Below, piece after piece: positions 21-2,018 of a stretch of DNA of 25,629 nt; the stretch's first letter is position 1, and the number at the start of each line of letters is the position of its first letter. The position numbers were made by a program, and so were the translations under genes. The stretch comes from Flavobacteriaceae bacterium. Its GTDB lineage: Bacteria; Bacteroidota; Bacteroidia; Flavobacteriales; Flavobacteriaceae. The notes beneath the pieces were generated by a model that was not told where the DNA came from, ran no database searches, and saw only the letters and a list, made by a program, of their open reading frames with translations. The DNA lies in NCBI GenBank assembly GCA_040830145.1, contig JBFOLQ010000318.1:1-25629 (forward strand). The letters are read 5' to 3'.

Positions 21-346
21 TAGACGAATTTCCATTTTCTTAAAAAAATGATAATCAGTTGTTTATGTTTTTCTATTTCTATATTTTTCAATTCATTTTG
101 CGAGAATTTAACACGCGTTTTAGGTCAAAAAAAACGGCAATATAAATGCCGAATACCTTGGCTTACAGTAGCTTTTAATTAAAAACCTTAAAAAAAATAA
201 GGTTTTCATATAGTGAGGATTCAAAAAAAAATTACTTTTTTTGTCACCTCCTCCTGTAGATAAAAACTTGATAACTTGTGCGGACTTTCCCCGACAGGCC
301 GCCGTACCCTTTTTAATTTCATACTGTTAACTTTAAATATAGCAGT

Positions 347-508
347 ATGAAAAAAGTGTTTATTGGCCTTTTGGCCATCGCGGCATTGAGTTTGGGATCC
401 TGTAGCAAGGATGATGATGATCAAACAGAACTTTACCAAATCGACAAAGGTGACCCACCCCCAAAAAACGGTATTGAAAAAGGCACGCCTCCGCCCCCTA
501 ACGGGTAG
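347..508 (+). CDS. Small lipoprotein/peptide precursor, 53 aa, not in the ORF track: MKKVFIGLLAIAALSLGSCSKDDDDQTELYQIDKGDPPPKNGIEKGTPPPPNG
   Basis: Translated by hand from ATG347 to TAG508. It has a basic N-terminus, a hydrophobic core, lipobox LGSC, an acidic linker and two tandem 11-aa C-terminal repeats. Confidence 0.88.
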   Translation: MKKVFIGLLAIAALSLGSCSKDDDDQTELYQIDKGDPPPKNGIEKGTPPPPNG

Positions 509-983
509 ACGCTCACACTTCTTGGCAGGGGTGGTCTCGTGCGTCTTACTATTGGCCACCCCTTTCATTTTTTATTCGTACAGGTTAATTCCAGAAACAC
601 TTACTGAAACCAGTATTCTGGGCCTTACCATTGAGGCTGGGGCACATGGAAACCTTAATTACTATGCCTACTACTTCATTACCAAGGTAGTGTTTGCGGT
701 GTGTTTTATAGTTTGGTTCCTAAATGCAAGGCAATGGTGGCGATGGGCCATCTTAGTACCCATTTGCATGCTCCTGTTCCAGATTATGGGAGTGGTGAAC
801 ACCTCAATTGACTATATTGATGAATTTGATTTCTGGTATTCCCTTCCTGTGGTGCTGCCTATTGCAGCCATATTGGTAGGTGTGGCACTACGCTTATATA
901 ATAAAGTCCGTTTTCTTGACATAAGGGAACGAGTAGATGCTGAAATCAACACAGTTAAAAAGGGCCAGGATGAAAACCAATAG
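411..983 (+). CDS. Four-TM membrane protein with a C-terminal helical tail (start uncertain: ATG411, TTG474, TTG522 or GTG531)
   Basis: Four hydrophobic segments (FLAGVV..FYSY, YAYYFITKV..FLNA, WWRWAILVPICMLLFQ, FWYSLPVVLPI..LY). The WW.WAILVPI.M..FQ motif recalls an uncharacterised Flavobacteriaceae membrane family (from memory). Confidence 0.8.
   Translation: MMMIKQNFTKSTKVTHPQKTVLKKARLRPLTGRRSHFLAGVVSCVLLLATPFIFYSYRLIPETLTETSILGLTIEAGAHGNLNYYAYYFITKVVFAVCFIVWFLNARQWWRWAILVPICMLLFQIMGVVNTSIDYIDEFDFWYSLPVVLPIAAILVGVALRLYNKVRFLDIRERVDAEINTVKKGQDENQ
440..505 (+). repeat. Two imperfect 33-bp tandem repeats encoding IDKGDPPPKNG / IEKGTPPPPNG
   Basis: 440-472 versus 473-505. Protein consensus I[DE]KGxPPPxNG is kept despite synonymous changes. 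Confidence 0.85.
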
Positions 984-1161
984 GTACATACACATAGTAC
1001 GTGAGTTCAAGGCGCTTAAGGCTCGAAAGGCTCAAATTTCAAGTGAACAATATTTGAAAGAACTTGAACTATTGAAACAGGATATAGATGCCCAGCTGAC
1101 TTCCCCGGCGTTAAATGCTAATGAAATTAAAAGTTTGCGGGGACTGTTGAAGGCAATTTAA
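970..1161 (+). CDS. Small helical/coiled-coil protein, 63 aa (MKTNRYIHIVREFKALK...)
   Basis: ATG970 overlaps the end of the membrane-protein gene. The protein is amphipathic and charged. The track start at 937 is probably over-extended. Confidence 0.6.
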   Translation: MKTNRYIHIVREFKALKARKAQISSEQYLKELELLKQDIDAQLTSPALNANEIKSLRGLLKAI

Positions 1162-1580
1162 TGCGTCCCGTTTTCTTTGGCCCGTATGGTGGCACGGGTC
1201 TTTTTTATCTCTTCATCTATTTGGTCGGCTATCAATTCTTTGATAACCTCTGTGATGTTCCCAAGCCGTGAGTCCAGGCCGTTACTGATTTTTTGATCTA
1301 TCAGGGCGTCAATGGTGTTTGATTTGCCATACGAGATGCTCTCTTCCATTAAAATGTCTGAGCTAGACTTTTTTCTTTCTCCTTTTCCTGTTAAAACCCA
1401 CTCAATGTTATACTGAGGGTAGTTTTCCAATATTCCCGCAATGACTTTTGAGGAAGGGTAGCTGTTCTGTTTAATAAGCTTGGTTATGTATCCACTTTTA
1501 ACTCCAAGACTTTCCTCAAAGCGCTTGTTATTGCCTCCAAGCTCTTCCACAATCTCCTGCATCCTATCTCCTATTCCCAT
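1158..1580 (-). CDS. CI-like XRE helix-turn-helix repressor without an S24 peptidase domain
   Basis: N-terminal HTH ending in the Bacteroidota XRE signature YPQYNIEWVLTGKG. Divergent from the early operon. C-terminal half helical, with no Ser/Lys autopeptidase motifs. Confidence 0.82.
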   Translation of the reverse strand: MGIGDRMQEIVEELGGNNKRFEESLGVKSGYITKLIKQNSYPSSKVIAGILENYPQYNIEWVLTGKGERKKSSSDILMEESISYGKSNTIDALIDQKISNGLDSRLGNITEVIKELIADQIDEEIKKTRATIRAKENGTH

Positions 1581-1715: not shown

Positions 1716-2018
1716 ATGATTACTAAAGAAGAGATAAAAAATTATAAGGATATCATCGGGAAAAACTGGTCTCGCAAGATCTGTGACTTTTTAGACGAAA
1801 AAGGCTATCGCAGAGATTCCAATGAAAAGTACACTCCCCAAGACGTCATTAATTTTTTCAATGGCCGCTATTCCCTGCAAATGCATCTAAATGTGCTTAA
1901 GGCCGTGGAGTACTACAAGAATCTCAATGAGCAAATGCAAGAAGAGATTCAAAAAATGCACAAGAACTTATTTAAAAACAAAAAGCCCGAAGCGGCTACT
2001 TCGGGCGATAATCCATAA
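1716..2018 (+). CDS. Cro-like small DNA-binding protein (putative)
   Basis: First gene divergent from the repressor. Helical, basic, 100 aa. Assignment is positional. Confidence 0.55.
   Translation: MITKEEIKNYKDIIGKNWSRKICDFLDEKGYRRDSNEKYTPQDVINFFNGRYSLQMHLNVLKAVEYYKNLNEQMQEEIQKMHKNLFKNKKPEAATSGDNP
1985..2006 (-). terminator. Intrinsic terminator-like hairpin oriented for leftward transcription
   Basis: GCCCGAAG-cggcta-CTTCGGGC preceded by an A-tract, which is a U-tract on the minus strand. Confidence 0.55.

Follow-up and report, generated by a model that had tools for sequence, protein, structure and literature searches.

A candidate four-part gene module of Flavobacteriaceae in phage-borne form: exported repeat peptide, four-transmembrane protein, helical protein and a convergent repressor-type gene

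Genes of the cassette and their products

We analysed a 25.6-kb stretch of DNA (the window), which is the entire contig C318 of a metagenome-assembled genome (MAG) of a marine Flavobacteriaceae bacterium, 73.6% complete and derived from a mollusc-associated metagenome. Phage-like genes were found along the whole window, including those for a primase, a helicase-methylase, a head protease and a depolymerase-like lyase. Near the start of the window, three small open reading frames (ORFs) form a cassette that converges on the gene of a helix-turn-helix (HTH) protein. As judged from comparative sequence analysis, these four genes are the compact phage-borne form of a four-part, Flavobacteriaceae-specific module composed of an exported repeat peptide, a four-transmembrane (4-TM) protein, a helical module and the HTH protein. 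The features of the block, with the evidence for each, are the following (nt, nucleotides):

347..508, plus strand: gene for a 53-residue exported lipopeptide precursor (ORF listing, upstream homologs and codon-position constraint)
440..472, plus strand: repeat unit 1 of the peptide, I-D-K-G-D-P-P-P-K-N-G (read from the sequence)
473..505, plus strand: repeat unit 2 of the peptide, I-E-K-G-T-P-P-P-P-N-G (read from the sequence)
522..983, plus strand: gene for a 4-TM inner-membrane protein, 153 residues when started at TTG 522 (family alignment A1 and AlphaFold2 (AF2) model)
970..1161, plus strand: gene for a 63-residue cytoplasmic helical protein (alignment A2, which supports the start at ATG 970)
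1158..1580, minus strand: gene for a 140-residue XRE-type HTH protein in the position of a prophage repressor (weak HTH_19/HTH_3 and repressor PHROG matches; alignment A3)

In the peptide, the signal peptide and lipobox occupy residues 1-19 (L-G-S-C, with Cys19 at nt 401-403) and are followed by the acidic stretch C-S-K-D-D-D-D and the two repeat units. The signal peptide, lipobox and invariant cysteine of bacterial lipoproteins are thus all present in the sequence, and lipidation is predicted; the N-terminus was matched by lipoprotein signal models only (LPAM_1, E 0.007; PG1828-family lipoprotein, E 1.5e-6). The two units share about 64% DNA identity and differ mostly at third codon positions, indicating that they have been kept as protein and are not the product of a recent slip. 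The sequence C-X-K-(D/E)2 has been described as the surface-export optimum of Flavobacteriaceae lipoproteins (PMC5080379), and C-S-K-D-D-D-D fits this surface-export (LES) criterion after the cysteine; the motif is not kept in the peptides of sister phages, and its relevance in the window peptide is doubtful.

When codon-position entropy was calculated for 26 distinct related loci, the last 20 peptide codons gave values of 0.63/0.33/1.03 in the peptide frame, and directly past the peptide stop the pattern switched to the frame of the 4-TM protein (0.99/0.68/1.35). This pattern argues for purifying selection on the peptide and for an N-terminal extension of the 4-TM frame that is not conserved. 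In the region of overlap, P-P-N-G was constant across loci in the peptide frame, while H-Q-T-D in the 4-TM frame varied to L-P-T-D or P-L-T-G. The three ORFs that the first-pass annotation had proposed here (lipopeptide, 4-TM and helical protein) are accordingly real genes, as their homologs, codon-position constraint and purifying selection indicate. Peptide genes of this kind had no gene call or name in most of the loci that we read.

Several other explanations of the small first gene were considered and set aside. A translation-arrest leader of the SecM/MifM kind does not fit, because a product of 40-53 residues would not yet have left the ribosome tunnel when the stop codon is reached, and because the conservation of the mature part is at the protein level. 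A programmed frameshift producing a peptide/4-TM fusion was also rejected: slippage on the A-AAA-AAC heptamer at 'P-K-N' would move the ribosome to -1, the 4-TM frame lies at +1, and the site is not conserved. A bacteriocin with its immunity protein is disfavoured, since the peptides are short, hydrophilic and not cationic, are kept in a diderm periplasm and are near-invariant across genera. As a separate observation, the start of the unit, V/I-D-K followed by Y and prolines, recalls the N-termini of insect proline-rich antimicrobial peptides such as oncocin and pyrrhocoricin, a likeness that we take to be probably coincidental; the bacterial units are shorter and not cationic.

The start of the 4-TM gene is ambiguous, with candidates at ATG 411, TTG 474 (the database gene call P0001, 169 residues), TTG 522 and GTG 531, all leading to the stop at 983. 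Alignment A1 contained 20 invariant residues and a loop of the form Y-I-D-E-[FY]-D-F-W-Y-S-L-P (Y-I-D-E-F-D-F-W-Y-S-L-P in the window protein), in which D100, E101, D103, F104, W105, S107 and P109 were invariant. The AF2 model (predicted local distance difference test score, pLDDT, 84) showed TM1, a β-hairpin, TM2, TM3, an acidic loop and TM4, the last running on as a long helix. From this model and the positive-inside distribution of lysine and arginine, the β-hairpin and the acidic YIDEFDFW loop are predicted to be periplasmic, on the side to which the peptide is exported, and both termini cytoplasmic.

Neither the 4-TM protein nor the helical protein matched a Pfam, NCBIfam, PHROG or PADLOC family. 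A weak Pfam hit of the 4-TM protein to SpoIIGA (E 0.059) was ignored because it covers transmembrane helices only. Fold searches with the AF2 model (AFDB clusters, Foldseek against the PDB and exhaustive VIA) returned uncharacterised relatives or generic helical bundles only, and a Protein Atlas search returned only unnamed Bacteroidota clusters. A protease resembling LspA (signal peptidase II) was rejected as a candidate, as Foldseek against the PDB gave nothing at E < 0.001 and the best VIA hits (Z 7) were generic helical bundles, with no LspA among them.

The stop codon of the helical gene overlaps that of the minus-strand HTH gene by 2 nt. The HTH protein has a helical C-terminal domain in alignment A3, and the Pfam search found no S24 peptidase domain of the kind present in self-cleaving LexA/CI-type repressors, in agreement with the earlier proposal of a repressor lacking its own autoprotease. 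Having no domain for RecA-dependent self-cleavage, the protein would need another input.

Distribution and genomic linkage of the four parts

Matches to the 4-TM family were found in 286 of 401 sampled Flavobacteriaceae genomes, which bears out the earlier suspicion that this membrane family also occurs at non-phage loci. The family gave no match in 373 genomes from 56 other Bacteroidota families, nor in 15 genomes of one large Flavobacteriaceae genus (g173). Clustered at 50% identity, its members in a library of 1.84 billion proteins fell into 518 clusters. Tandem 2 x 4-TM (8-TM) proteins of roughly 400 residues make up about half of the family, and no additional Pfam domain was detected in the long members.

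A small exported peptide was found upstream of the 4-TM gene with great regularity. All 29 of the best loci contained a lipoprotein ORF of 40-48 residues ending in ...I-D-K-x-x-Y-E-[VI]-P-P-N-G, placed upstream of the 4-TM ORF and overlapping its long frame. A small upstream ORF with a lipobox or a Sec-type signal peptide was found again at 40 further loci, and nearly all second-tier loci have one. The prediction that a small lipoprotein ORF always precedes the 4-TM gene therefore passes almost without exception in the type I, type II and phage-type loci defined below, provided that Sec-type precursors are counted with the lipobox-bearing ones. The family consensus of the unit is [IV]-[DE]-K-x(4-8)-P-x-x-G, with units of 11-14 residues in one to six tandem copies: one copy in most loci (including the sister phages L078 and L082), two in the window, L079, L081, L083 and L073, three in L064, four in L076 and six in L062. 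At L074 the whole peptide gene is present in two tandem copies. Tandem repetition is thus a recurrent trait of the peptide family that arises independently.

The helical protein was encoded as a separate gene in only 4 of the 401 genomes, each time directly after a 4-TM gene. The next-best whole-genome matches of its profile were the C-terminal ends of 4-TM homologs, in chromosomal ORFs. When a profile was built from six split helical proteins, 34 of 149 4-TM representatives were matched at an independent E-value (iE) < 0.01, always 5-20 residues past the 4-TM domain, and the motif F..LK..K......EYL..L..L was legible in fused proteins of the 4-TM family. When a fused form was modelled with AF2 (pLDDT 83), the TM4 helix extended to residue 161 and was followed by two short, confidently modelled helices. 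The helical protein is the split-off C-terminal module of the 4-TM family, which is fused in many chromosomal paralogs.

The HTH family, which is rare, was linked to the same proteins. Its A3 profile matched 68 of 401 genomes at E <= 1e-15, with one to three family genes per genome. Among the 30 best loci, taken from 30 genomes, 26 had the HTH gene tail-to-tail with a 4-TM-family gene, mostly with a stop-to-stop gap of less than 40 nt; of the four non-paired loci, at least two were cut by contig ends, one of these still showing a helical ORF. Fourteen of the paired loci adjoin a conserved response-regulator gene (73-84% identity) and 12 adjoin tsaE, so the HTH/4-TM locus passes vertically. The recurrent chromosomal order was response regulator, HTH, one to four convergent 8-TM(+helical) genes, tsaE, peptide and 4-TM. 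When 4-TM genes were scored for both traits, none of the 74 without the helical module had an adjacent HTH gene, and essentially all HTH-adjacent copies carried the module, either fused or split. A related prophage (L021/L035, G130) carries two tandem copies of the HTH gene at 2146-2931, both convergent with the cassette.

The loci fell into four arrangements:

Type I: beside mutS; peptide present and near-invariant across genera; no helical module; no adjacent HTH gene
Type II: after tsaE; peptide present, of Sec or lipoprotein type; no helical module; no adjacent HTH gene
Type III: 8-TM arrays; no peptide of their own; helical module present; adjacent HTH gene present
Phage type: between int/attP and the early genes; peptide present; helical module present (split); adjacent HTH gene present

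Peptide, 4-TM protein, helical module and HTH protein occurred together in a single block in the phage type only. The window contains all the parts of this arrangement: a unit peptide upstream, a 4-TM protein with the invariant loop, the helical module and a tail-to-tail HTH gene of the A3 family. The type I peptide/4-TM pair was near-invariant over more than 25 genera beside mutS. The phage-type block was also found in three further genera, in related prophages with a common primase (66% identity) and helicase-methylase (78%), and in one NCBI MAG, two JGI metagenomes and three IMG/VR contigs, the IMG/VR scan yielding only these three loci.

Maximum-likelihood analysis placed the phage type together with type I in one well-supported clade (99/97). 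The best tree placed the mutS-linked type I copies nested within a phage grade; a tree with monophyletic phage copies was not rejected (approximately unbiased (AU) test, p = 0.079), so that transfer between host and phage may have gone either way, the earlier idea of captured host cargo being one of the two possibilities. Peptide types followed the 4-TM clades; adjacent genes are co-inherited, and this agreement is hence no sign of co-evolution.

Some chromosomal neighbourhoods deserve separate mention. At loci L133, L134 and L135 (G332, G284 and G239), a porX-like response-regulator gene and tsaE enclose three to four 8-TM paralogs in tandem, which sit on very long branches. In the type I loci L006-L033, the peptide/4-TM pair is regularly preceded by a membrane protein of 141-145 residues without a Pfam family, and still further upstream lie one or two very acidic lipoproteins of 70-105 residues (C-R-E-T-..., rich in E, D and A); the type I neighbourhood looks like a conserved envelope gene cluster. 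Just beyond the prophage end in G130 (L035, 6030-6428, minus strand), a small ORF with a double-glycine-type leader (…M-E-Q-I-N-G-G-Q-C…) is followed by several small membrane proteins; the ORF may be a precursor resembling those of class II bacteriocins or lanthipeptides.

Position and surroundings of the block

The cassette had been placed at the prophage end of the window, and this placement needs correction, as the end in question is really that of the contig. Read in reverse complement, contig C261 starts with a stretch identical to nucleotides 1-141 of the window, an assembly-graph overlap that implies a branch point. C261 (locus L002) carries a host gene of the cyclic nucleotide (cNMP)-binding/CBS/nucleotidyltransferase type that diverges from the cassette, and from the overlap and this host gene attL would be expected no further than about 350 nt from the start of the window. 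In relatives, the cassette block adjoins attL/int. Locus L079 (JGI) shows the circular or excised order of tail, int, small HTH, peptide, 4-TM, helical and HTH genes, and L080 (JGI), the same phage in integrated form, has host genes on that side; comparing the two pins attP/attL to the stretch of roughly 600 nt that lies upstream of the small extra HTH gene. In G114 the phage-type block abuts host genes.

Three further features flank or overlap the block:

1716..2018, plus strand: first early gene, 100 residues, divergent from the HTH gene (ORFs, and homologs in L005, L021, L025 and L079)
317..352, no strand assigned: 18-nt inverted repeat TTTCATACTG...CAGTATGAAA (repeat search, 83% complementary), overlapping the start codon of the peptide gene
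1179..1210, plus strand (that of the cassette): terminator-like hairpin (1179-1200) with a T-run (consensus scan only)

The early gene is kept in related prophages. The inverted repeat could be an operator or a translation-masking RNA hairpin. The terminator-like hairpin falls within the last codons of the minus-strand HTH gene, with an expected overlap of about 50 nt between cassette transcripts and the repressor mRNA.

A possible route from the membrane to the repressor, its rivals and known systems

At the level of sequence comparison, the evidence demonstrates that the genes are real and conserved and that they are joined by three pairwise genomic linkages, namely peptide with 4-TM protein, 4-TM protein with helical module, and 4-TM-helical unit with HTH protein. 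In the simplest model that would unite these linkages, a membrane protein takes the peptide as its ligand and controls the repressor through the helical module. The precursor, with its one to six units, would be exported by a lipoprotein or Sec signal peptide, and the exported peptide would bind the periplasmic face of the cognate 4-TM protein. The cytoplasmic helix of the 4-TM protein and the helical module, whether fused or present as the separate 63-residue protein, would then relay the state of the membrane protein to the HTH protein, which the module may bind, sequester or release. A prophage repressor unable to cleave itself would in this way have its activity set by a cue that comes from the envelope or depends on the peptide, with the peptide most likely acting in the periplasm of its own producer and not as a freely diffusing signal. 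We put this reading forward tentatively, as the best of those weighed and a real possibility that stops short of being probable. That the peptide-gated 4-TM switch was borrowed from, or is shared with, a host system, and that the detachable helical module serves as an anti- or co-repressor of an XRE-type repressor without autoprotease, is in our judgement doubtful.

The functional link to the repressor that the first-pass annotation had suggested thus gains strong comparative support from the helical protein as a detached 4-TM module and from the tail-to-tail HTH/4-TM pairs; as an account of the core role of the peptide/4-TM pair it does not hold, since types I and II have no HTH gene and that role is not simply to feed a repressor. 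Several observations weigh against peptide-liganded control of the repressor. Most chromosomal pairs (types I and II, about 70% of genomes) are without the helical module and an adjacent HTH gene, so the peptide/4-TM pair must have a role independent of the HTH protein, and the HTH-linked chromosomal arrays of type III carry no peptide gene of their own. These 8-TM arrays, variable in copy number and fast-evolving, look like immunity or conflict loci. Instead of protein contact, the conserved adjacency could reflect an 'immunity region' that is inherited as a block, and a motif shared between the HTH C-terminus and the 4-TM tail was not significant (hhalign probability 4.6%). In the mollusc metatranscriptome of the same study, a 215-nt contig lay exactly over the peptide ORF (302-516), and similarly short contigs were scattered across early and late phage genes; as evidence of cassette expression this RNA is weak and unspecific, and DNA carry-over is possible. 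The physical contacts, the direction of signalling and the effect on lysogeny are all points that we infer.

The main rival explanation, itself unlikely in our estimate, is superinfection exclusion or envelope lysogenic conversion, in which the lipopeptide and the 4-TM protein, with the helical partner, would block DNA entry or adsorption of related phages, and the repressor would be their neighbour simply because genes for immunity and exclusion are passed on together. In Gram-positive phages, ltp, sie2009 and similar Sie genes occupy the int-repressor position, and the block lies in the corresponding accessory region at the prophage end, between int/attP and the repressor, in L079, L080 and G114. 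Products acting in the envelope would suit such a function, as would chromosomal 8-TM paralogs in arrays of one to four copies with very long branches, which are expected of conflict genes. The window peptide also fits the surface-export optimum C-X-K-(D/E)2 (PMC5080379), but this motif is not conserved in sister phages, and searches of PHROG, PADLOC and Pfam gave no match to an exclusion or defence protein, the peptide matching only the signal-peptide regions of PHROGs of unknown function. Nor does exclusion readily account for a type I pair that, unlike defence genes, is near-invariant across more than 25 genera beside mutS, or for an HTH/4-TM pairing preserved on the chromosome at a locus that passes vertically and has a housekeeping regulator and tsaE as neighbours.

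Three other explanations were weighed. An arbitrium-like cell-to-cell signal would have the units cleaved, leave the cell, accumulate with density and be read by the 4-TM protein of other cells, biasing lysis against lysogeny. Precursors with precise unit boundaries, such as the six copies in L062, do resemble multi-peptide precursors, phage-type peptides vary between phages, and the module is linked to a repressor without autoprotease; we nevertheless consider such a signal very unlikely, because no protease, exporter or outer-membrane route is encoded, the unit junctions share no consistent residue, Sec-type and lipoprotein-type precursors have only the periplasm as a common compartment, the almost identical host type I peptides leave no room for strain specificity, and there is no AimR-type receptor, the match to the AimP model being confined to the signal peptide. 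We see equally slim prospects for an abortive-infection or toxin-antidote membrane module with RexB-like logic, in which a 4-TM channel would be held shut by the co-translated peptide and open on infection or loss of the element. The small gene does come first and overlaps or abuts the larger membrane gene, genomes hold several paralogs with tandem duplications, the prophage copy sits beside the repressor, and the long cytoplasmic helix with its coiled-coil-like module could drive oligomerisation. PHROG, PADLOC and fold searches, however, found no similarity to RexB, holins or known membrane toxins, we know of no precedent for an exported antidote acting from the periplasm, and an addiction module would not be expected to show conservation as core-like as that of type I. 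It is likewise improbable that the peptide/4-TM pair does ordinary envelope housekeeping and that the phage copy is a passenger without a role in phage biology. A mostly chromosomal and widespread family, with types I and II functioning without an HTH gene, would agree with this, but related prophages of at least four genera, and metagenomic phage contigs as well, share these four genes as a block in one and the same position, with protein identities of 35-66%, indicating that selection in phages has long maintained it.

The literature that we searched contained no description of the four-part module, and we found no curated family for any part. Next to nothing is known of how temperate phages of Bacteroidota keep and leave lysogeny, and the module is a concrete candidate input to a repressor. 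If such peptide-gated control of the repressor were real, no earlier lysogeny switch gated by a peptide or the envelope would be on record for Bacteroidota, and the route from membrane to repressor would represent a new class of signalling made up entirely of undescribed protein families. The chromosomal system of HTH genes, 4-TM/8-TM arrays and exported repeat peptides is lineage-specific and present in a large share of marine Flavobacteriaceae, and its peptide genes are systematically overlooked by annotation. Under any reading, the module represents new envelope biology in an ecologically important group and a genetic handle on marine phage-host interplay.

Among known systems, arbitrium (AimP-AimR-AimX) in Bacillus SPbeta-like phages has a cytoplasmic TPR/HTH protein as its receptor, and its signal is one C-terminal hexapeptide that is re-imported through Opp. 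Shared with it are a phage-encoded, small exported peptide precursor near lysogeny control and the concept of an exported peptide acting on the lysis-lysogeny decision. The present system differs in its 4-TM membrane partner, its units of 11-14 residues in one to six copies, its diderm host, its mostly chromosomal family and the lack of any sequence relationship. The peptide matched the NCBIfam model AimP_fam at E 0.0037 and 17.4 bits, against a cut-off of 35, over signal-peptide residues 1-17 only, and the neighbouring genes (4-TM, 63-residue helical and 140-residue XRE-type HTH) include no TPR, AimR-like or other cytoplasmic peptide-binding receptor; membership in arbitrium, to which the locus had earlier been likened, is therefore unsupported. 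In the prgQ/prgX system of pCF10 (Enterococcus faecalis), PrgX binds peptides directly in the cytoplasm, and the convergent geometry can give a bistable switch. There too, a peptide-precursor operon and a repressor gene converge with overlapping 3' ends, but that system has no membrane partner or helical adaptor, and there is no homology.

The exclusion lipoproteins Ltp (phage TP-J34), Llp (T5) and Cor are folded proteins that work without a partner and target either a receptor or the incoming tape-measure protein. The window peptide resembles them as a small prophage-encoded lipoprotein, located like ltp between integrase and repressor, and departs from them in its short, repetitive mature part, its constant pairing with a 4-TM protein, its chromosomal orthologs in most of the family and the absence of a PHROG match. 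In lambda, rexAB is co-transcribed with cI, and RexB needs the cytoplasmic sensor RexA. RexB is a four-TM inner-membrane protein of about 150 residues encoded beside a prophage repressor gene, as is the 4-TM protein here; the cassette differs in being convergent and in having an exported peptide and a 63-residue helical partner, with no match to RexB in sequence, fold, PHROG or Pfam and no RexA-like gene. Membrane control of a transcription factor is well represented by anti-sigma factors, BlaR1-BlaI, PtsG-Mlc and the 'trigger transporters'. The 4-TM protein stands apart from these in having no protease, kinase, anti-sigma or transporter domain, and all parts of the module come from undescribed families; what it would have in common with them, in the arrangement proposed here, is a membrane protein that uses a cytoplasmic segment to relay its state to the product of a neighbouring gene, a soluble DNA-binding protein.

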